From Escherichia coli (GTDB lineage Bacteria; Pseudomonadota; Gammaproteobacteria; Enterobacterales; Enterobacteriaceae): a DNA stretch of 64,000 nt. Position 1 is the first letter of the stretch, and each line of letters begins with the position of its first letter. The DNA lies in the NCBI RefSeq assembly GCF_050920415.1, contig NZ_CP169309.1; one strand, written 5' to 3'. Of this stretch, positions 3,459 through 64,000 are shown in pieces. The position numbers were made by a program, and so were the translations under genes. A model generated the notes under the pieces. That model saw only the letters and a program-made list of their open reading frames with translations, did not search any database and had not been told where the DNA came from.

Positions 3459-3757
3459 GAGCCGCATTCCGGCATTTAAACGTGAATATAGCAGGGGAAA
3501 TCAACAGTTATAGAATGGCGTCGGGTGCTTGAGGCTGTCTGGCGTTAAGCATTCGCGAGGTTCCAGATGGACAAAAGCCCCAGGCGATATATCTATCAAC
3601 CTGAGGCTCGCGTTCGAACGTAGCAATTCGGATGTTAGTCTCTTCTTTGCAGGGAGGCAAGACATGTGTATATCACTGTAATTCGATATTTATGAGCAGC
3701 ATCGAAAAATAGTCCACTGATATCATCGATAATACTAAAAAAACAGGGAGGCTATTA

Positions 3758-6424
3758 ATGGAACCTTTTAAATATATATGTCATTACTGGGGGAAATCCT
3801 CAAAAAGCCTGACGAAAGGAAATGATATTCATCTGTTGATTTATCATTGCCTGGATGTTGCAGCTGTTGCAGATTGCTGGTGGGATCAATCAGTCGTACT
3901 ACAAAATGCTTTTTGCCGAAATGAAATGCTATCAAAACAGAAGGTGAAAGCCTGGCTGTTATTTTTCATTGCCCTTCATGATATCGGAAAGTTTGATATA
4001 CGATTCCAATATAAATCAGCAGAAAGTTGGCTGAAATTAAATCCTGCAACGTCATCACTTAATGGTCCATCAACACAAATGTGCCGTAAATTTAATCATG
4101 GTGCAGCCGGTCTGTATTGGTTTAACCAGGATTCACTTTCAGAGCAATCTCCCGGGGATTTTTTCAGTTTTTTTGATGCCGCTCCTCATCCTTATGAGTC
4201 CTGGTTTCCTTGGGTAGAGGCCGTTACAGGACATCATGGTTTTATATTACATTCCCAGGATCAAGATAAGTCGCGTTGGGAAATGCCAGCTTCTCTGGCA
4301 TCTTATGCTGCGCAAGATAAACAGGCTCGTGAGGAGTGGATATCTGTACTCGAAGCATTATTTTTAACACCAGCCGGGTTATCTATAAACGATATACCAC
4401 CTGATTGTTCATCATTGTTAGCAGGTTTTTGCTCGCTTGCTGACTGGTTAGGTTCCTGGACCACAACGGATACCTTTCTATTCAAAGAAGATGCACCTTC
4501 AGGCATACAAGCGCTAAGAAAATATTTTCAGGATAGACAACAGGATGCGTGTCGGGTACTGGAGTTGAGTGGCCTTGTATCAAATAAGCGTAGTTATGAC
4601 GGCGTACATGCCTTACTGGACAATGGCTATCAACCAAGACAATTACAGGTGTTGGTTGATGCTCTTCCTACAGCTCCCGGGCTGACGGTGATTGAGGCAC
4701 CTACGGGATCAGGTAAAACCGAAACAGCGCTGGCCTATGCCTGGAAACTTATTGACCAACAACTTGCGGATAGTGTTATTTTTGCCCTCCCTACACAAGC
4801 TACTGCAAATGCAATGCTCAGCAGAATGGAAGCGAACGCGAGCCGTTTATTTACCTCCCCAAATCTTATTCTTGCTCATGGTAATTCACGTTTTAACCAC
4901 CTTTTTCAATCAATAAAATCACGCGCATTTACTGAGCAGGGGCAAGAAGAAGCGTGGGTTCAGTGTTGCCAATGGTTGTCACAAAGCAATAAGAAAGTGT
5001 TTCTTGGGCAAATAGGAGTTTGCACGATTGATCAGGTGTTGATATCGGTATTGCCAGTTAAACACCGCTTTATCCGTGGTTTGGGAATTGGTCGAAGTGT
5101 TTTAATTGTTGATGAAGTTCATGCTTACGACACGTATATGAACGGCTTGCTGGAGGCTGTGCTCAAGGCTCAGGCTGATGTGGGGGGGAGTGTTATTCTT
5201 CTTTCCGCAACTCTACCAATGAAACAAAAACAGAAACTTCTGGATACTTATGGTCTGCATACAGATCCAGAGGAAAATAACTCCGCATATCCACTCATTA
5301 ACTGGCGAGGTGTGAATGGTGCGCAACGTTTTGATCTGTTAGCTCATCCAGAACAACTCCCGCCCCGCTTTTCAATTCAGCTAGAACCTATTTATTTAGC
5401 TGACATGTTACCTGACCTTACGATGTTAGAGCGAATGATCGCAGCGGCAAACGCGGGTGCACAAGTCTGTCTTATTTGCAATTTGGTTGACGTTGCACAA
5501 GTATGCTACCAACGGCTAAAGGAGCTAAATAACACGCAAGTAGATATAGATTTGTTTCATGCACGCTTTACGCTGAACGATCGTCGAGAAAAAGAGAATC
5601 GTGTTATTAGCGATTTCGGAAAAAATGGGGATCGAAATGTTGGACGAATACTTGTCGCCACGCAAGTCGTGGAACAATCGCTCGACGTTGATTTTGATTG
5701 GTTAATTACCCAGCATTGTCCCGCAGATTTGCTTTTCCAACGATTGGGCCGTTTACATCGTCATCATCGCAAATATCGTCCCGCTGGTTTTGAGATTCCT
5801 GTTGCCACCATTTTGCTGCCTGATGGCGAGGGTTACGGACGACATGAGCATATTTATAGCAACGTTAGAGTCATGTGGCGGACGCAGCAACATATTGAGG
5901 AACTTAATGGAGCATCCTTATTTTTCCCTGATGCTTACCGGCAATGGCTGGATAGCATTTACGATGATGCGGAAATGGATGAGCCAGAATGGGTCGGCAA
6001 TGGCATGGATAAATTTGAAAGCGCCGAGTGTGAAAAAAGGTTCAAGGCTCGTAAGGTTCTGCAGTGGGCTGAAGAATATAGCTTGCAGGATAACGATGAA
6101 ACCATTCTTGCGGTAACGAGGGATGGGGAAATGAGCCTGCCATTATTGCCTTATGTACAAACGTCTTCAGGTAAACAACTGCTCGATGGCCAGGTCTACG
6201 AGGACCTAAGTCATGAACAGCAGTATGAGGTGTTAGCACTTAATCGCGTCAATGTACCCTTCACTTGGAAACGTAGTTTTTCTGAAGTAGTAGATGAAGA
6301 TGGGTTACTTTGGCTGGAAGGGAAACAGAATCAGGATGGATGGATCTGGCAGGGTAATAATATTGTTATTACCTACACTCGGGATGAAGGGATGACCAGA
6401 GTCATCCCTGCAAATCCCAAATAA
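3758..6424 (+). CDS. cas3: Cas3 HD nuclease / DEAD-box helicase (type I-E)
   Basis: 888-aa ORF with an N-terminal HD domain (HDIGK), a Walker A motif (APTGSGKT) and a DEVH box; immediately precedes casABCDE. Confidence 0.95.
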   Translation: MEPFKYICHYWGKSSKSLTKGNDIHLLIYHCLDVAAVADCWWDQSVVLQNAFCRNEMLSKQKVKAWLLFFIALHDIGKFDIRFQYKSAESWLKLNPATSSLNGPSTQMCRKFNHGAAGLYWFNQDSLSEQSPGDFFSFFDAAPHPYESWFPWVEAVTGHHGFILHSQDQDKSRWEMPASLASYAAQDKQAREEWISVLEALFLTPAGLSINDIPPDCSSLLAGFCSLADWLGSWTTTDTFLFKEDAPSGIQALRKYFQDRQQDACRVLELSGLVSNKRSYDGVHALLDNGYQPRQLQVLVDALPTAPGLTVIEAPTGSGKTETALAYAWKLIDQQLADSVIFALPTQATANAMLSRMEANASRLFTSPNLILAHGNSRFNHLFQSIKSRAFTEQGQEEAWVQCCQWLSQSNKKVFLGQIGVCTIDQVLISVLPVKHRFIRGLGIGRSVLIVDEVHAYDTYMNGLLEAVLKAQADVGGSVILLSATLPMKQKQKLLDTYGLHTDPEENNSAYPLINWRGVNGAQRFDLLAHPEQLPPRFSIQLEPIYLADMLPDLTMLERMIAAANAGAQVCLICNLVDVAQVCYQRLKELNNTQVDIDLFHARFTLNDRREKENRVISDFGKNGDRNVGRILVATQVVEQSLDVDFDWLITQHCPADLLFQRLGRLHRHHRKYRPAGFEIPVATILLPDGEGYGRHEHIYSNVRVMWRTQQHIEELNGASLFFPDAYRQWLDSIYDDAEMDEPEWVGNGMDKFESAECEKRFKARKVLQWAEEYSLQDNDETILAVTRDGEMSLPLLPYVQTSSGKQLLDGQVYEDLSHEQQYEVLALNRVNVPFTWKRSFSEVVDEDGLLWLEGKQNQDGWIWQGNNIVITYTRDEGMTRVIPANPK

Positions 6425-6838
6425 CTTCGGGAATGATTGGTATCAATGACGATAACAAGACCAATAACGGTTTATCCCTACTTAAGTAGGGAAGGTGCAC
6501 AATGTACATCTTCTTTTAATTTCCCGGTATGAGATTTTATATTCACAGTATGAATATTTTATGTAATAAAATTTATGGTAATTATTATAACTAAAAATTT
6601 CTTTGATAATAAAACGAATAACTTGCAGATTTGAAATGCATGCATTATTGTCTTTAAACAATTCAACACATCTTAATATATGCATAGGTTAATTGTATTA
6701 AACCAATGAATATATTTTTGCAGTGAATGTGATTATTGAATTAATTACGCCGTATTTTTTCTTTGTTTTTACCGATAACGGAAGTGTGCCGACGTATAGA
6801 AATGCAGGAGAAATGTCGGAGCATATGAAGGAGAACAA
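6425..6838 (+). promoter_or_regulatory. AT-rich cas3-casA intergenic region carrying the Cascade operon promoter (H-NS/LeuO-regulated in K-12)
   Basis: 414-bp strongly AT-rich non-coding stretch directly upstream of casA. The promoter assignment comes from published K-12 work, not from exact motif positions read here. Confidence 0.45.
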
Positions 6839-8347
6839 ATGAATTTGCTTATTGATAACTGGATCCCTGTACGCCCGCGAAACGGGGGGAAAGTCCAAAT
6901 CCTAAATCTGCAATCGCTATACTGCAGTAGAGATCAGTGGCGGTTAAGTTTGCCCCGTGACGATATGGAACTGGCCGCTTTAGCACTGCTGGTTTGCATT
7001 GCACAAATTATCGCCCCGGCAAAAGATGACGTTGAATTTCGACATCGCATAATGAATCCGCTCACTGAAGATGAGTTTCAACGACTCATCGCGCCGTGGA
7101 TAGATATGTTCTACCTTAATCACGCAGAACATCCCTTTATGCAGACCAAAGGTGTCAAAGCAAATGATGTGACTCCAATGGAAAAACTATTGGCAGGGGT
7201 AAGCGGCGCGACGAATTGTGCATTTGTCAATCAACCGGGGCAGGGTGAAGCATTATGTGGTGGATGCACTGCGATTGCGTTATTCAACCAGGCGAATCAG
7301 GCACCTGGTTTTGGTGGTGGCTTTAAAAGCGGTTTACGTGGAGGAACACCTATAACCACCTTCGTATGTGGGATCGATCTTCGCTCGACGGTGTTACTCA
7401 ATGTCCTCACAATACCTCGTCTTCAAAAACAATTTCCCAATGAATCAAATACGGAAAACCAACCTACCTGGATTAAGCCTGTCAAGCCCAATGAATCTGT
7501 GCCAGCTTCGTCAATTGGGTTTGTCCGTGGCTTATTCTGGCAACCAGCGCATATTGAATTATGCGATCCCATTGGGATTGGTAAATGTTCTTGCTGTGGA
7601 CAGGAAAGCAATTTGCGTTATACAGGTTTTCTTAAGGAAAAATTTACCTTTACAGTTAATGGGCTATGGCCCCATCCGCATTCCCCTTGTCTGGTAACAG
7701 TCAAGAAAGGGGAGGTTGAGGAAAAATTTCTTGCTTTCACCACCTCCGCACCATCATGGACGCAAATCAGCCGAGTTGTGGTAGATAAGATTATTCAAAA
7801 TGAAAATGGAAATCGCGTGGCGGCGGTTGTGAATCAATTCAGAAATATTGCGCCGCAAAGTCCTCTTGAATTGATTATGGGGGGATATCGTAATAATCAA
7901 GCATCTATTCTTGAACGACGTCATGATGTGCTGATGTTTAATCAGGGGTGGCAACAATACGGCAATGTTATAAACGAAATAGTGACTGTTGGTTTGGGGT
8001 ATAAAACAGCCTTACGCAAGGCGTTATATACTTTTGTGGAAGGTATTAAAAATAAAGACTTTAAAGGGGCTGGAGTCTCTGTTCATGAGACTGCAGAAAG
8101 GCATTTCTATCGACAGAGTGAATTATTAATTCCCGATGTATTGGCGAATGTTAATTTTTCCCAGGCTGATGAGGTAATAGCTGATTTACGAGACAAACTT
8201 CATCAATTGTGTGAAATGCTATTTAATCAATCTGTAGCTCCCTATGCACATCATCCTAAATTAATAAGCACATTAGCACTCGCCCGCGCCACGCTATACA
8301 AACATTTACGGGAGTTAAAACCGCAAGGAGGGCCATCAAATGGCTGA
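6839..8347 (+). CDS. casA: Cascade large subunit Cse1/CasA
   Basis: 502-aa ORF at the head of the Cascade operon; start MNLLIDNWIPVRPR matches Cse1. Confidence 0.95.
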   Translation: MNLLIDNWIPVRPRNGGKVQILNLQSLYCSRDQWRLSLPRDDMELAALALLVCIAQIIAPAKDDVEFRHRIMNPLTEDEFQRLIAPWIDMFYLNHAEHPFMQTKGVKANDVTPMEKLLAGVSGATNCAFVNQPGQGEALCGGCTAIALFNQANQAPGFGGGFKSGLRGGTPITTFVCGIDLRSTVLLNVLTIPRLQKQFPNESNTENQPTWIKPVKPNESVPASSIGFVRGLFWQPAHIELCDPIGIGKCSCCGQESNLRYTGFLKEKFTFTVNGLWPHPHSPCLVTVKKGEVEEKFLAFTTSAPSWTQISRVVVDKIIQNENGNRVAAVVNQFRNIAPQSPLELIMGGYRNNQASILERRHDVLMFNQGWQQYGNVINEIVTVGLGYKTALRKALYTFVEGIKNKDFKGAGVSVHETAERHFYRQSELLIPDVLANVNFSQADEVIADLRDKLHQLCEMLFNQSVAPYAHHPKLISTLALARATLYKHLRELKPQGGPSNG

Positions 8348-8822
8348 TGAAATTGATGCAATGGCTTTATATCGAGCCTGGCAACAGCTGGATAACGGAG
8401 CATGTGCGCAAATTAGACGTGTTTCAGAACCTGATGATTTACGCGATATCCCTGCGTTTTATCGGTTGGTGCAACCTTTTGGTTGGGAAAACCTGCGTCA
8501 CCAACAGGCTCTTTTGCGCATGGTGTTTTGCCTGAGCGCAGGAAAGAATGTCATCCGACATCAGGATAAAAAACCGGAGCAAACAATAGGTATCTCGTTG
8601 GGAAGAGCTTTAGCCAATAGTGGAAGAATTAACGAGCGCCGTATCTTCCAATTGATTCGGGCTGACAGAACAGCCGATATGGTCCAGTTACGTCGATTGC
8701 TTGCTCACGCCGAACCCGTACTTGACTGGTCATTAATGGCCCGGATGTTGACCTGGTGGGGAAAGCGCGAACGCCAGCAACTTCTGGAAGATTTTGTATT
8801 GACCACAAACAAAAATGCGTAA
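8340..8822 (+). CDS. casB: Cascade small subunit Cse2/CasB
   Basis: 160-aa ORF overlapping the casA 3' end by 8 nt; position and size match Cse2. Confidence 0.93.
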   Translation: MADEIDAMALYRAWQQLDNGACAQIRRVSEPDDLRDIPAFYRLVQPFGWENLRHQQALLRMVFCLSAGKNVIRHQDKKPEQTIGISLGRALANSGRINERRIFQLIRADRTADMVQLRRLLAHAEPVLDWSLMARMLTWWGKRERQQLLEDFVLTTNKNA

Positions 8823-8834
8823 GGAAACCTCTCA

Positions 8835-9926
8835 ATGTCTAATTTTATTAATATCCATGTCCTGATCTCTCACAGCCCTTCATGTCTGAACCGCGACGAT
8901 ATGAACATGCAGAAAGACGCTATTTTCGGCGGGAAAAGGCGAGTAAGAATTTCAAGTCAAAGCCTTAAACGTGCGATGCGTAAAAGTGATTATTACGCAC
9001 AAAATATTGGTGAATCCAGTCTCAGAACAATTCATCTTGCACAATTACGTGATGTTCTTCGGCAAAAACTTGGTGAACGTTTTGAGCAAAAAATCATCGA
9101 TAAGACATTAGCTCTGCTCTCCGGTAAATCAGTTGATGAAGCTGAAAAGATTTCTGCCGATGCGGTTACTCCCTGGGTTGTGGGAGAAATAGCCTGGTTC
9201 TGTGAGCAGGTTGCAAAAGCAGAGGCAGATAATCTGGATGATAAAAAGCTGCTCAAAATTCTTAAGGAAGATATTGCCGCTATCCGTGTGAATTTACAGC
9301 AGGGGGTTGATATTGCGCTTAGCGGAAGAATGGCAACCAGCGGCATGATGAGTGAGTTGGGAAAAGTTGATGGTGCAATGTCCATTGCGCACGCGATCAC
9401 GACCCATCAGGTTGATTCTGATATTGACTGGTTCACCGCCGTAGATGATTTACAGGAACAAGGTTCTGCACATCTGGGAACACAGGAATTTTCATCGGGT
9501 GTTTTTTATCGTTATGCCAACATTAACCTTGCTCAACTTCAGGAAAATTTAGGCGGCGCCTCCTGGGAGCAGGCTCTGGAAATTGCAACCCATGTTGTTC
9601 ATATGCTGGCAACAGAGGTCCCTGGAGCAAAACAGCGTACTTATGCCGCTTTTAACCCTGCGGAGATGGTAATGGTTAATTTCTCCGATATGCCACTTTC
9701 TATGGCAAATGCTTTTGAAAAAGCGGTGAAAGCGAAAGATGGCTTTTTGCAACCGTCTATACAGGCGTTTAATCAATATTGGGATCGCGTTGCGAATGGC
9801 TATGGTCTGAACGGAGCTGCTGCGCAATTTAGCTTGTCTGACATGGACCCAATTACTGCTCAGGTTAAACAAATGCCTACTTTAGAACAGTTAAAATCCT
9901 GGGTTCGTAATAATGGCGAGGCGTGA
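8835..9926 (+). CDS. casC: Cascade backbone subunit Cas7/CasC
   Basis: 363-aa ORF in operon position 3. Confidence 0.95.
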
Positions 9927-9928
9927 AC

Positions 9929-10603
9929 ATGAGATCTTATTTGATCTTGCGGCTTGCTGGGCCAATGCAAGCCTGGGGGCTGCCGACCTTTGAAGGAACG
10001 CGACCTACCGGAAGATTTCCGACCCGAAGCGGGTTATTAGGGCTACTCGGGGCTTGTCTTGGGATCCAACGTGATGATACTTCTTCATTACAGGTGTTAT
10101 CAGAGAGTGTGCAATTTGCAGTGCGTTGCGATGAACTCATTCTTGACGATCGTCGTGTGTCTGTAACGGGGTTGCGTGATTACCATACAGTCCTTGGAGC
10201 GCGAGAAGATTACCGTGGTTTGAAAAGTCATGAAACGATTCAAACATGGCGCGAATATTTATGTGATGCCTCCTTTACCGTCGCTATCTGGTTAACACCA
10301 CAGGCAACGATGGTTATGTCAGAACTTGAAAAAGCAGTATTAAAGCCTCGGTATACACCGTATCTGGGGCGGAGGAGTTGTCCGCTAACACAACCGCTTT
10401 TTCTCGGGACATGTCAGGCGTCGGATCCTCAGAAGGCGCTATTAAATTATGAGCCCGTTGGCGGCGATATTTATAGTGAGGAATCAGTTGACGGGCATCA
10501 TTTAAAATTTACGGTGCGCGACGAACCGATGATCACCTTACCTCGACAATTTGCTTCCCGGGAATGGTATGTGATTAAAGGAGGTATGGATGTATCTCAG
10601 TAA
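9929..10603 (+). CDS. casD: Cascade subunit Cas5/CasD
   Basis: 224 aa from the ATG at 9929 (the ORF track begins 2 codons earlier at a GTG); start MRSYLILRLAGPMQAWG. Confidence 0.9.
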   Translation: MRSYLILRLAGPMQAWGLPTFEGTRPTGRFPTRSGLLGLLGACLGIQRDDTSSLQVLSESVQFAVRCDELILDDRRVSVTGLRDYHTVLGAREDYRGLKSHETIQTWREYLCDASFTVAIWLTPQATMVMSELEKAVLKPRYTPYLGRRSCPLTQPLFLGTCQASDPQKALLNYEPVGGDIYSEESVDGHHLKFTVRDEPMITLPRQFASREWYVIKGGMDVSQ

Positions 10604-11189
10604 AATCATCATTGCCAGGGCCTGTAGCAGGGATCTTTACCAACTTCACCAGGGATTATGGCATTTATTTCCAAATAGACCAGATGCTGCTCGTGATTTT
10701 CTTTTTCATGTTGAGAAGCGAAACACACCAGAAGGCTGTCATGTTTTATTGCAGTCAGCGCAAATGCCTGTTTCAACTGCCGTTGCGACAGTCATTAAAA
10801 CTAAACAGGTTGAATTTCAACTTCAGGTTGGTGTTCCACTCTATTTTCGGCTTCGGGCAAATCCGATCAAAACTATTCTCGACAATCAAAAGCGTCTGGA
10901 CAGTAAAGGGAATATTAAACGCTGTCGGGTTCCGTTAATAAAAGAAGCAGAACAAATCGCGTGGTTGCAACGTAAATTGGGCAATGCGGCGCGCGTTGAA
11001 GATGTGCATCCCATATCGGAACGGCCACAGTATTTTTCTGGGGAAGGTAAAAATGGAAAAATCCAAACGGTTTGCTTTGAAGGTGTGCTCACCGTCAATG
11101 ACGCATCAGCGTTAATGGATCTTATACAGCAAGGTATTGGGCCAGCCAAATCGATGGGATGTGGTTTGCTATCTTTGGCTCCACTGTGA
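10590..11189 (+). CDS. casE: Cas6e/CasE pre-crRNA endoribonuclease
   Basis: 199-aa ORF overlapping the casD 3' end; Cas6e family. Confidence 0.95.
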   Translation: MYLSKIIIARACSRDLYQLHQGLWHLFPNRPDAARDFLFHVEKRNTPEGCHVLLQSAQMPVSTAVATVIKTKQVEFQLQVGVPLYFRLRANPIKTILDNQKRLDSKGNIKRCRVPLIKEAEQIAWLQRKLGNAARVEDVHPISERPQYFSGEGKNGKIQTVCFEGVLTVNDASALMDLIQQGIGPAKSMGCGLLSLAPL

Positions 11190-11204
11190 TTGAGGTGTAA
11201 TAAA

Positions 11205-12408
<1,204 letters not shown>

Positions 12409-12513: not shown

Positions 12514-13701
12514 GAGTTCCCCGCGCCAGCGGGGATAAACCGCTCGCGTATACTCTCTGCCAACGTCTCCAGATGAGTTCCCCGCGCCAGCGGGGATAAA
12601 CCGGCGGGATTATCGGCACTGACGTCGGCGCTGTGGAGTTCCCCGCGCCAGCGGGGATAAACCGGGTCGCTTCCATATATGAACCTTGAGGATTAGGAGT
12701 TCCCCGCGCCAGCGGGGATAAACCGGTTCCATGCACTGCCCGCAGTGTCAGCCGTACGAGTTCCCCGCGCCAGCGGGGATAAACCGGTAAATCATACGTT
12801 GGCATCAGTATTTTTCTCGAGTTCCCCGCGCCAGCGGGGATAAACCGACTCCGCGCCATTTGAGAATTCTCAGTTCTGCGAGTTCCCCGCGCCAGCGGGG
12901 ATAAACCGCTACTGCTGTCAGACGGCAGGGCAAAACAGCGGAGTTCCCCGCGCCAGCGGGGATAAACCGGACGTGCGGATGCTGTTTCTGGTTTTACCTC
13001 CGAGTTCCCCGCGCCAGCGGGGATAAACCGTTTTTTCTCAGCGTCTGGCAGAGCTAATCGCCGAGTTCCCCGCGCCAGCGGGGATAAACCGGTGTCAAAT
13101 TTCATGTAATTGATGATCCAGCTGAGTTCCCCGCGCCAGCGGGGATAAACCGGGTATTTCTCGTTAACACGGTCGTATCAAAACGAGTTCCCCGCGCCAG
13201 CGGGGATAAACCGAGGGGTTGCAACCATAGCCCTTAGTTGATTGCGAGTTCCCCGCGCCAGCGGGGATAAACCGCCAGTGGATTTTAATAAACTCTCCAG
13301 CGAGCAGAGTTCCCCGCGCCAGCGGGGATAAACCGTTCGCCACGTCAGGCGTGATTTCCTGCACTGAGAGTTCCCCGCGCCAGCGGGGATAAACAGGGCG
13401 CGTCTGCGCCCGCTAGGACTCGTGTCAAGAGTTCCCCGCGCCAGCGGGGATAAACCGGGAGTTCAGACATAGGTGGAATGATGGACTACGAGTTCCCCGC
13501 GTTAGCGGGGATAAACCGCCCGGTAGCCAGGTTTGCAACGCCTGAACCGAGAGTTCCCCGCGCCAGCAGGGATAAATCGGCAACGACGGTGAGATTTCAC
13601 GCCTGACGCTGGTGTTCCCCGCATCAGCGGGGATAAACCGGGCGCACTGGATGCGATGATGGATATCACTTAGAATTCCCCGCCCCTGCGGTAGAACTCC
13701 C
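12514..13701 (+). CRISPR. Type I-E CRISPR array: 19 regular 29-bp repeats plus one degenerate terminal repeat, 19 spacers of 32 bp
   Basis: Repeat GAGTTCCCCGCGCCAGCGGGGATAAACCG recurs with an exact 61-bp period from 12514 to 13612. Repeats at 13368, 13490, 13551 and 13612 carry point variants, and a heavily degenerate terminal repeat sits at 13673-13701. Confidence 0.97.
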
Positions 13702-43582: not shown

Positions 43583-43613
43583 ATCGCCTCCCATTAACTA
43601 TTGCCAGCTACAA

Positions 43614-43629
43614 GCAATAATTGTGCCAG
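43614..43629 (-). promoter_or_regulatory. Sigma-54 promoter (-24/-12) of the hyp operon
   Basis: Minus-strand sequence TGGCACAATTATTGC (GG-N10-GC) about 30 bp upstream of the hypA start. Confidence 0.55.
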
Positions 43630-43741
43630 TGTTGATTATCCCTGCGGTGAATAATGTCGATGATGTCGAAATGACACGTCGACACGGCGACGAAATTCAT
43701 CTTTAGCTTAAAAATCGCTTTAATAACAATAAATTAAAAGT

Positions 43742-43757
43742 TGGCACAGAAAATGCT
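43742..43757 (+). promoter_or_regulatory. Sigma-54 promoter (-24/-12) of the hyc operon
   Basis: TGGCACagaaaaTGCTT with correct GG-N10-GC spacing, about 40 bp upstream of the hycA ATG. Confidence 0.6.
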
Positions 43758-56876: not shown

Positions 56877-56921
56877 TGCATTGCAGAATTTAATTTCTTT
56901 AAATAACAATGAATTAAAAAT

Positions 56922-56937
56922 TGGCATGATTTGTGAA
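56922..56937 (+). promoter_or_regulatory. Putative sigma-54-type promoter of hydN-hypF
   Basis: TGGCATgatttgtGA with a good -24 element but a weak -12; the preceding ~20 bp (aaataacaatgaattaaaaat) is nearly identical to the sequence just upstream of the hycA sigma-54 promoter. Confidence 0.35.
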
Positions 56938-60001: not shown

Positions 60002-61135
60002 CTACATCGGCAAGGTTTTCAACATTCCAAACGCCTCTTTCATCCGATCCTCACTGACTACAAAGGCGCGAAGCTGGTCGGCATCGTCAACGCCGCGCGC
60101 CACCATTCCCTGGCTTTCGGTACAAATCTGCCAGCGCAAATCCTGACGCTGGGTTTCGCCTGCCAGATGCAGCGGTAATTCCGGCGTTTTGATTTTCACC
60201 AGCATCGCCGGTAGTTTCAGCGGCGTGTTATTGCCGAGAAGATTTTTTGCCAGCACCATCGCGCTAAGTTGAATCGGCTGGAGGAACGGCAATACCTGAC
60301 CGTTAATTTCTGCGCAATCGCCCAGCGCGTAAATATCGGCATTACTGGTTTGCAGATAGCTATCGACGCAAACGCCGCGATTAATCGTCAGCCCGGCGCG
60401 TCGTGCCAGGGCGGTTTCCGGGCGCAGTCCGGTGGCGGCAATTACCGCATCCACTTCGATGCTGCGCTGGCGGTCCAGCGTTGCCAGAATGCCATAATTC
60501 GTTTTTTCCAGCCCCTGCAACTGAGATTTCAACAGCAGATGAACGCCCATCTCCGTCAACCGATGCTGTAAGCGACTGCTTACTTCCGGTGGCATTAACG
60601 ACGCCAGAATACTGGCAGCGTTGTCGATTAGCGTGACCGCTTTGCCTGCCCGACAAAAATCCATCGCCAGCTCGCTACCAATCAAGCCACCGCCTACAAT
60701 CAACACCCGTCGGGCATCCCGCAGTTGTGTTTCACAGGCGCGATATTCTTGCTGACTATTTAACGTCAGCATTAACTCACGCCCAGGCACCGGCGGGACA
60801 AAGGCGCTGGCTCCGGTAGCCAGCACTAGCTTGTCGTATTGCCACTGATTATTCTGGCTTTTCACCACATGGGCTTCGGCATCGATATCCGTCACCCAGG
60901 TGTGCGGAAACAGGCGCAGATTAAACTGCTCGGCAAATTCACCCGCCGTCTGGCGGGTAAGGTCGTCGGCACGTTGCCCCTGACTGATCACATGGCTAAG
61001 ATCAGGTTTGTTGTACTCATCCATGCTGTCGGCGGCAATCAGGGTCAATGGAATACTGGCGTCCTGTTTGCGAATATTTTTCACCAGTTGGCGGGCGGCG
61101 AAGCCCGAACCAATGATCACAATGCCGTTGCTCAT
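60002..61135 (-). CDS. norW: NADH:flavorubredoxin reductase
   Basis: 377-aa ORF with FAD/NAD Rossmann motifs (GSGFAA, GGGLIG); 4-nt overlap with norV. Confidence 0.94.
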
Positions 61136-62571
61136 TTTGCCTCCGATGCCAGTTCGTCAAAGACGTCTTTGCCAAGGGAGCATTCCGGGCACAGGAAGTT
61201 ATCCGGGACTTCACTCCACGGCGTTCCTGGCGCAACGTCCTGCATTGGCTCGCCTTTTGCCGGATCGTAAATCCACTGGCAGACGCTGCACTGCATCCGT
61301 GGGCCGAGGTCAGCCGTCGTGGTGGCACAGGTTTCTTCTTTAACCACCGTATTCACCGTGCTTTGCGGCAGCGGCGAAAGCGCCCACTGACGGGCAATTT
61401 CACGACCGTGTTCACGGCATAATTCCAGTGCATCCTGGTCCGGTCGCCATTTGGCTTTCAGGCTAAGCGACATTTCGAAACCCGCATCTTGCAGGCGCGT
61501 GGAAAGACGATCCACGGCACCGCCGCTCCAGCCGTGAGAGCCGAAAGCACTGGCGCGTTTGTTACGGAAGCGTAATCCGGTCATCTCCTCCACCAGCCCG
61601 GCGATTTTCGGCATCATCACGTTATTCATCGTCGAAGTGCCAACCAGCACGCCTTTTGAGCGGAAGACATTGGTCAAGATTTCGTTTTTATCGCTTCGGG
61701 CGACGTTGAAAATTTTCACCGCCACGCGCGGGTCGGTTTCCGCAATCCCCTGGGCGATAGCGTCAGCCATCATGCGGGTGTTATTCGACATGGTGTCGTA
61801 GAAAATGGTGATTCTGTCTTCCTGATAATCCGCCGCCCATTTCAGGTACAGCTCGACAATTTGCGTCGGGTTATCGCGCCATACCACGCCGTGAGAGGTG
61901 GCAATCATATCGACCGGCAAGTTAAAGCCCAGGATCTCGGTGATTTTCGGCGTTACCAGGCGGCTGAACGGTGTCAGGATATTGGCGTAGTAACGCTGAC
62001 ACTGCTCGAAAAGCTCGGTCTGATCCACTTCATCGTTGAAGAGATGCTCGTCGCAGTAGTGCTGACCGAAAGCATCGTTACTGAACAGCACCGCGTCGCC
62101 CGTCAGGTAAGTCATCATGCTGTCCGGCCAGTGCAGCATTGGCGTTTCGACAAAAATGAGCTGTTTGCCGTTGCCGATATCCAGCGTGTCACCAGTTTTC
62201 ACCACATTAAAATTCCACTCCGGATGATGGTGATGACCATTTATTGAGTCGATAGCGTTGGCAGTACAATAGATCGGCGTATCGGGAATTTGCGCCATCA
62301 GTTCGGTCAGCGCCCCGGCGTGGTCCTCTTCAGCATGGTTAATCACGATGTAATCGATATCCGCCAGATCGATTTCATTACGCAGGTTCTGCACAAATTC
62401 GCGGCTGAATTTATGGTCGACGGTGTCGATCAGCACGTTTTTTTCTTCACGAATGAGGTAGCTGTTGTAGCTGCTGCCGCGCAGCGTTTTATATTCCGTG
62501 CCGTGAAAATCACGCACTTCCCAGTCACGTTGACCAACCCAATGAATGTTATTTTTCACCACAATAGACAT
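61132..62571 (-). CDS. norV: Anaerobic nitric oxide reductase flavorubredoxin
   Basis: 479-aa ORF with metallo-beta-lactamase-like, flavodoxin and C-terminal rubredoxin (CxxC...CxxC) domains. Confidence 0.95.
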
Positions 62572-62618
62572 AGCAACCTCAATTTATTCAGCGTGTTCTA
62601 AAAAGATGTCTTGCTAAT

Positions 62619-62634
62619 TGCAGATTGCGTGCCA
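62619..62634 (-). promoter_or_regulatory. Sigma-54 promoter (-24/-12) of norVW
   Basis: Minus-strand TGGCACGCAATCTGCA (GG-N10-GC) about 50 bp upstream of the norV start. Confidence 0.6.
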
Positions 62635-62689
62635 GTTTTTTATCTGATTGTTTTTACTATACAAATAAAATTATGCTCATTAATGAGTA

Positions 62690-62745
62690 GTCAAAATGAC
62701 TATCAATCAAATGGTCGATATGACAATATCTATAGTCAAATTGAC
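62690..62745. promoter_or_regulatory. Three NorR enhancer-binding sites (GT-N7-AC) in the norR-norV intergenic region
   Basis: gtcaaaatgac (62690-62700), gtcgatatgac (62714-62724) and gtcaaattgac (62735-62745), spaced 24 and 21 bp apart. Confidence 0.65.
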
Positions 62746-62757
62746 AGTGAGGCAAAG

Positions 62758-64000
62758 ATGAGTTTTTCCGTTGATGTGCTGGCGAATATCGCCATCGAAT
62801 TGCAGCGTGGGATTGGTCATCAGGACCGTTTTCAGCGCCTGATCACCACGCTGCGTCAGGTGCTAGAGTGCGATGCGTCTGCGTTGCTACGTTACGACTC
62901 GCGGCAGTTTATTCCGCTTGCCATCGACGGGCTGGCGAAGGATGTTCTCGGTAGACGCTTTGCGCTGGAAGGGCATCCACGGCTGGAAGCGATTGCCCGC
63001 GCCGGGGACGTGGTGCGCTTTCCCGCAGACAGCGAATTGCCCGATCCCTATGACGGTTTGATTCCAGGGCAGGAGAGTCTGAAGGTTCACGCCTGTGTTG
63101 GTCTGCCCTTATTTGCCGGGCAAAACCTGATCGGCGCACTGACGCTCGATGGGATGCAGCCCGATCAGTTCGATGTTTTCAGCGACGAAGAGTTACGGCT
63201 GATTGCTGCGCTGGCGGCGGGAGCGTTAAGCAATGCGTTGCTGATTGAACAACTGGAAAGCCAGAATATGCTGCCAGGCGATGCCACGCCGTTTGAAGCG
63301 GTGAAACAGACGCAGATGATCGGCCTGTCGCCAGGCATGACGCAATTGAAAAAACAGATTGAGATTGTGGCGGCGTCCGATCTCAACGTCCTAATCAGTG
63401 GTGAGACGGGAACGGGTAAGGAATTGGTGGCGAAAGCGATTCATGAAGCCTCGCCGCGGGCGGTGAATCCGTTGGTCTATCTCAACTGTGCCGCACTGCC
63501 GGAAAGTGTGGCGGAAAGTGAGTTGTTCGGGCACGTGAAAGGGGCGTTTACTGGCGCTATCAGTAACCGCAGCGGGAAGTTTGAAATGGCGGATAACGGC
63601 ACGCTGTTTCTGGATGAGATCGGCGAGTTGTCGTTGGCATTGCAGGCCAAGCTGCTGAGGGTGTTGCAGTATGGCGATATTCAGCGCGTTGGCGATGACC
63701 GCAGTTTGCGGGTCGATGTGCGCGTGCTGGCGGCGACTAACCGCGACTTGCGCGAAGAGGTGCTGGCAGGGCGATTTCGTGCTGACTTGTTTCATCGCCT
63801 GAGTGTGTTTCCGCTTTTGGTGCCGCCGCTGCGTGAGCGGGGTGATGACGTCATTCTTCTGGCGGGGTATTTCTGTGAGCAGTGTCGTTTGCGGCTGGGG
63901 CTCTCCCGCGTGGTATTAAGTGCCGGGGCGCGGAATTTATTGCAACACTATAGTTTTCCGGGGAACGTGCGCGAACTGGAACATGCTATTCATCGGGCGG
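62758..64000 (+). CDS. norR: Anaerobic nitric oxide reductase transcriptional regulator NorR (sigma-54 enhancer-binding protein), 3' end outside the window
   Basis: Open frame from the ATG at 62758 to the window end ([18 protein letters not shown]...); GAF domain followed by an AAA+ domain ([14 protein letters not shown]); divergent from norVW. Confidence 0.93.

Follow-up and report, generated by a model that had tools for sequence, protein, structure and literature searches.

The window, a stretch of 64,000 nucleotides of the E. coli chromosome, contains the norV-norR intergenic region at 62572-62757 (186 bp, 32% G+C), which is bounded by the start codons of norV (ATG at 62571) and norR (ATG at 62758) and coincides exactly with the control region delimited in an earlier note on this DNA. 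The minus strand carries norV and norW, which overlap by 4 nt at the norV stop (Table 1). The same note had placed norR divergently from norVW, and this orientation is borne out by the plus-strand norR open reading frame and by the score of its product. NorV, NorW and NorR are all NCBIfam equivalog matches with scores above the respective cut-offs. The norR frame is open over 414 of its 504 codons, up to the window end. The part of NorR seen in the window comprises the GAF and Sigma54_activat (AAA+) domains, with intact Walker A and GAFTGA motifs, while the C-terminal HTH falls beyond it. When the 501-bp stretch 62400-62900 was compared with the complete E. coli genomes, it was matched in all but one, with norV and norR annotated throughout. 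The best match was strain MFDS1022581 (food, South Korea), which is 100% identical over this stretch. In this strain norR is full length (504 aa, HTH included), and the gene neighbours around the region are hypF, norW, norV, norR, gutQ and srlR.

Table 1. Coordinates of the genes and regulatory elements around the norV-norR intergenic region, and of further sigma-54 promoters in the 64-kb window
Feature	Position	Strand	Remarks
norW, NADH:flavorubredoxin reductase	60002..61135	-	377 aa, intact; NCBIfam NF003437, 681 bits (cut-off 392)
norV, flavorubredoxin NO reductase	61132..62571	-	479 aa, intact; NCBIfam NF003954, 1046.7 bits (cut-off 711); expected Pfam domains
norV ribosome-binding site GAGG	62577..62580	-	5 nt before ATG; from the sequence
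norV transcription start	62608	-	probable, from the 37-nt distance (Bonocora et al. 2015) and the -137/-84 protection limits
Sigma-54 promoter CTGGCACGCAATCTGCA	62635..62619	-	GG-N10-GC, with GG at 62633/62632 and GC at 62621/62620; oriented towards norV
IHF-like site AAACAATCAGATA	62641..62653	-	2 mismatches to WATCAANNNNTTR; 6 bp upstream of TGGCA
NorR site 1 GTCAAAATGAC	62690..62700		centre about -87 from norV start; Site1 primer and 21-bp site-1 oligo map here
NorR site 2 GTCGATATGAC	62714..62724		centre about -111; Site2 primer maps to 62706-62731 with 2 designed mismatches
NorR site 3 GTCAAATTGAC	62735..62745		centre about -132; Site3 primer maps to 62728-62757 with 2 designed mismatches
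norR, 5' 1243 nt	62758..64000	+	NCBIfam NF003451, 719 bits (cut-off 476)
Three further K-12 sigma-54 promoters (hypA, hycA, hydN)	43613-43629, 43741-43757, 56921-56937	-, +, +	

Three inverted repeats start at 62690, 62714 and 62735, as the earlier note had reported. Their positions were confirmed by reading the sequence and by a pattern scan, in which they were the only GT-N7-AC matches within 62572-62757. Each site is 11 bp long. The notation GT-N7-AC, which the note used in its title, is correct and equals GTC-N5-GAC or GTC-N4-TGAC, whereas the form GTC-N5-TGAC given in its text is one base too long. The gaps between the sites are 13 and 10 bp, corresponding to 24 and 21 bp from centre to centre. 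Taken alone, the motif GTCN5GAC is unremarkable, with 17 occurrences in the whole 64-kb window against 10.7 expected, but a cluster of three sites within 56 bp appeared in none of 2000 dinucleotide-preserving shuffles (about 5e-4 expected).

Five of the 17 GTCN5GAC matches of the window cluster within 300 bp, namely the three sites and two matches in coding sequence, at 62524-62534 in norV and at 62816-62826 in norR. The latter two were considered as extra NorR sites and rejected as coding by-products. They fall on conserved G-Q-R-D and G-H-Q-D codons, and the motif is kept in 10 of 54 orthologues for the norV match and in 8 of 51 for the norR match, as the wobble position of the Gly codon varies freely. 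The palindrome CTCATTAATGAG, perfect over 12 bp, was also observed at 62677-62688, two bases from NorR site 1. It is common to most sampled E. coli and only loosely conserved in other genera, whereas K-12 has CCCATTAATGAG. We know of no protein that binds this palindrome.

The locus, its gene order and the 186-bp length of the intergenic region are the same as in E. coli K-12, whose norR-norVW intergenic region has reportedly been characterised by Gardner et al. in 2003 and by Tucker et al. in 2004, besides the study compared here. The three NorR sites, the sigma-54 promoter, the leader and the ribosome-binding site are identical to those of K-12. Three bases differ from MG1655, at 62659, 62662 and 62677, all of them in the spacer that separates the promoter from site 1, and the visible part of NorR has four substitutions relative to K-12 (E200Q, C to S, S to L and Q to L). 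The mutagenic primers of Tucker et al. (2010; PMC2831303) turn each NorR site from GT-N7-AC into GG-N7-CC. The Site1, Site2 and Site3 primers align with one repeat apiece, the two designed mismatches (GT to GG and AC to CC) being the only ones, and the 21-bp "site 1" oligo of the same study maps with 0 mismatches. The repeats at 62690, 62714 and 62735 are therefore the published sites 1, 2 and 3, and all three are intact, as had been noted, their sequences being identical to those of K-12. In that study, mutation of any one site abolished the induction of norV-lacZ, the enhancer-stimulated ATPase activity and open-complex formation, and three NorR dimers were proposed to form a DNA-stabilised hexamer. 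With sites and promoter identical to those found here, the K-12 region was shown to support NO-dependent activation of norV that requires NorR and RpoN (Tucker et al. 2010; PMC2831303). The same GT-N7-AC core is found upstream of a sigma-54 promoter in the NorR-norAB system of Ralstonia eutropha and at hmp/fhp of Pseudomonas aeruginosa (PMC2831303). In these two cases the NorR targets differ from norVW and are norA and hmp.

Downstream of the sites with respect to norV transcription, the minus strand contains TGGCACGCAATCTGCA at 62634..62619, which is the TGGCAC-N5-CTGCA promoter that had been described at 62619-62634. Its -12 element starts with C instead of T (CTGCA vs TTGCA). The sequence CTGGCACGCAATCTGCA is the 17-mer of the sigma-54 ChIP-seq motif OS25, which was assigned to norV at 37 nt from the gene start (Bonocora et al. 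2015), and this 17-mer is present exactly in the window at 62635..62619. A search of the whole window for the sigma-54 motif with at most one mismatch gave 2 matches against 2.26 expected, a count that is not above chance alone. The significance of the promoter thus lies in its position, its orientation, its conservation and the published binding data. In K-12, gSELEX showed binding of the sigma-54 holoenzyme to the norV-norR spacer, and binding of NorR to this spacer and essentially nowhere else.

From the 37-nt distance and the published methylation-protection range over the NorR sites (-137 to -84), two independent numbers that agree with the -12 element, we infer that norV transcription starts at about 62608. 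With +1 at this base, the GC of the promoter (62621/62620) lies at -13/-12 and the GG (62633/62632) at -25/-24. The outermost G's of the sites on the norV-sense strand, 62692 in site 1 and 62745 in site 3, then lie at -84 and -137, which are the limits of the protected range. The earlier note had held that its assignment would fall with a mismatch to the mapped NorR footprints or with a start site inconsistent with the -12 element. Start site and protection range both agree with the sites and the promoter, so that neither was found. Further downstream, the ribosome-binding site block TGAGGTTGCTATG of norV is kept across genera in an alignment of related loci.

The earlier note made no mention of IHF. 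Tucker et al. (2010; PMC2831303), citing Tucker et al. (2004), describe IHF as binding in the interval from the start site to the enhancers. The position of AAACAATCAGATA, just upstream of the promoter, fits this description and makes it a candidate IHF site.

Taken together, these features leave us in very little doubt that the region is the native norVW control region, acting by the published mechanism through NorR, IHF-assisted looping and the sigma-54 promoter. The system is already known and, with functional elements that match those of K-12, ordinary. Its mechanism was published in K-12, and the present analysis covers the presence, position and identity of the DNA elements together with the flanking genes. 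According to this mechanism, three NorR dimers would bind the three GT-N7-AC inverted repeats, near -87, -111 and -132, and the DNA would promote the assembly of a NorR hexamer. Sigma-54 RNA polymerase would wait in a closed complex at the -24/-12 promoter (62635..62619), and a bend put into the AT-rich spacer by IHF would bring the hexamer within reach of it. Binding of NO to the non-haem iron of the NorR GAF domain would lift the repression of the AAA+ ATPase, and ATP hydrolysis would then open the promoter, allowing transcription of norVW (NO reductase and NADH reductase) from about 62608. The earlier note had spoken of a functional switch. The norR gene is truncated at the end of the window, and rpoN and ihfAB are located outside it, so that a working switch in this strain is what we infer.

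The three sites may also, or even mainly, serve as an operator for the autorepression of norR, which we regard as possible but somewhat doubtful, and which would add to the activation of norVW without excluding it. In the annotation of K-12, NorR is a "dual regulator", and it is described as regulating both norR and norVW (PMC8249747). In addition, the distance from the end of site 3 to the norR ATG is 12 bp, so that the norR promoter must overlap the bound sites or lie upstream of them. However, a sigma-70 consensus scan found no norR promoter on the plus strand, which leaves such an overlap unsupported, and the documented role of all three sites is an essential activating one (PMC2831303). 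The sole sigma-70 match of the scan, TTGTCA-16-GATAGT, is on the minus strand. It was rejected, as its two elements come from halves of sites 2 and 1 and a single match is no more than chance would give.

Among the sampled E. coli, variants are nearly confined to the spacer (about 62644-62686). Neither the three sites nor the -24/-12 core is altered, with two exceptions, a G-to-A change inside the N5 of the promoter in one strain, and isolate AF3. The latter (NZ_OZ547117.1, a blood isolate) is the sole genome of 5426 in which the region is covered to less than 80%. Its norV-norR intergenic region is 141 bp long (1501-1641 of the retrieved locus) vs 186 bp, because 45 bp have been lost between sites 1 and 3, which are nearly identical, leaving a single hybrid site, GTCAAAATGAC. 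Judging from the K-12 mutagenesis, AF3 should have lost norVW induction.

The exact intergenic sequence of the window was found in 1 of the 5426 complete E. coli genomes. Over the stretch 62400-62900, two of the 5426 are at least 99% identical to the window and the rest 95-99%, and this small number of close matches indicates that the allele or lineage of the window has been sampled sparsely. The base at 62662, which falls in the IHF/looping region, is shared among the sampled genomes by MFDS1022581 only. The spacer variants of this strain could in principle retune norVW induction or basal norR expression quantitatively, which we consider very unlikely. It is likewise very unlikely that the architecture is intact and the switch nevertheless weakened or inactive in this strain, whether through the spacer changes, the substitutions in NorR or damage to the 3' part of norR. 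The three differences from K-12, the rarity of the exact intergenic sequence and the four substitutions in a NorR whose HTH lies outside the window would be in keeping with such a weakening. On the other hand, the variation of other strains concentrates in the same spacer, which suggests tolerance, and NorR has intact Walker A and GAFTGA motifs and scores far above its equivalog cut-off. The full-length norR of MFDS1022581, a strain identical over the stretch compared, also argues against a 3' defect.

The arrangement that would serve NorR-dependent activation of norVW recurs outside E. coli. When the triple-site pattern with fixed gaps was scanned over one genome per species, at least 120 loci were obtained. 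Among the matches listed, at least 58 are flanked by norR and norV homologues and come from Enterobacteriaceae, Vibrio, Salinivibrio and Shewanella, with the same three GTC-N5-GAC sites, the same gaps of 13 and 10 bp and a divergent norR. About half of the at least 120 matches listed come from high-GC genomes (Actinobacteria and others) and have no NorR or NorV nearby. They were set aside as chance matches, since these genomes are rich in GTC/GAC sequence.

A set of 55 full-length spacers was then compared, taken from loci of enterobacteria, Vibrio and Shewanella that had been retrieved with the site pattern. As the loci were chosen by this pattern, the conservation of GTC and GAC in them is circular, and the independent evidence comes from the interior of the sites, the spacing and the promoter. 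The unconstrained interior of the sites is A/T only in these pattern-selected loci, extending the motif to GTCA-WWW-TGAC. The -24 element TGGCA is invariant in all 55 pattern-selected spacers, and in 54 of them it starts 53-56 bp after site 1. The -12 element is CTGCA in Escherichia, Citrobacter and Kluyvera, whereas 29 of the 55 species (Enterobacter, Klebsiella, Lelliottia and others) have TTGAT or CTGAT, without the canonical GC. The IHF consensus WATCAANNNNTTR was present with at most one mismatch in 44 of the 55 related spacers, compared with 15% of shuffles, and 37 of these 44 sites sit 5-6 bp upstream of TGGCA. At the homologous position most related species have 0-1 mismatch, and the two-mismatch match of E. 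coli is poorer. Most of these related control regions have a better IHF consensus than E. coli, in spacers that are otherwise unalignable. That the three sites are a chance cluster of short palindromes in AT-rich intergenic DNA, without a regulatory role, is next to impossible: GTCN5GAC is indeed not significantly enriched over the window, the sigma-54 motif count is at chance and the two coding matches are themselves products of chance, but no shuffle reproduced the cluster, different genera share the spacing and the flanking elements, and published footprinting and mutagenesis were performed on the identical sequence.

Other features were observed in the 64-kb window. Compared with the K-12 motifs of the ChIP-seq table of Bonocora et al. 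(2015), the sigma-54 promoter of hypA, CTGGCACAATTATTGCT, is an exact match, and those of hycA and hydN have one mismatch each. Together with the norV promoter, the window therefore holds four sigma-54 promoters with two activators, FhlA and NorR. A CRISPR array with a 61-bp periodicity and the repeat GAGTTCCCCGCGCCAGCGGGGATAAACCG is located at about 12818-13152, downstream of plus-strand open reading frames at 3758-12122. The size and order of these frames (888 aa, cas3-like, then 502, 160, 363, 226, 199 and 310 aa) resemble those of a type I-E cas operon. The gap that precedes the 888-aa frame contains, at 3523-3678 on the plus strand, a match to the sok antitoxin RNA at the Rfam gathering level (RF01794, 97 bits), which suggests a hok/sok-type toxin-antitoxin remnant.

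Apart from annotation, the finding is of little consequence. The norV-norR region is a popular part for NO biosensors, so that the invariance of its functional elements, while the spacer varies, is mildly useful to know. As for the organism, the strain carries an apparently intact textbook NO switch that contributes to anaerobic NO detoxification.
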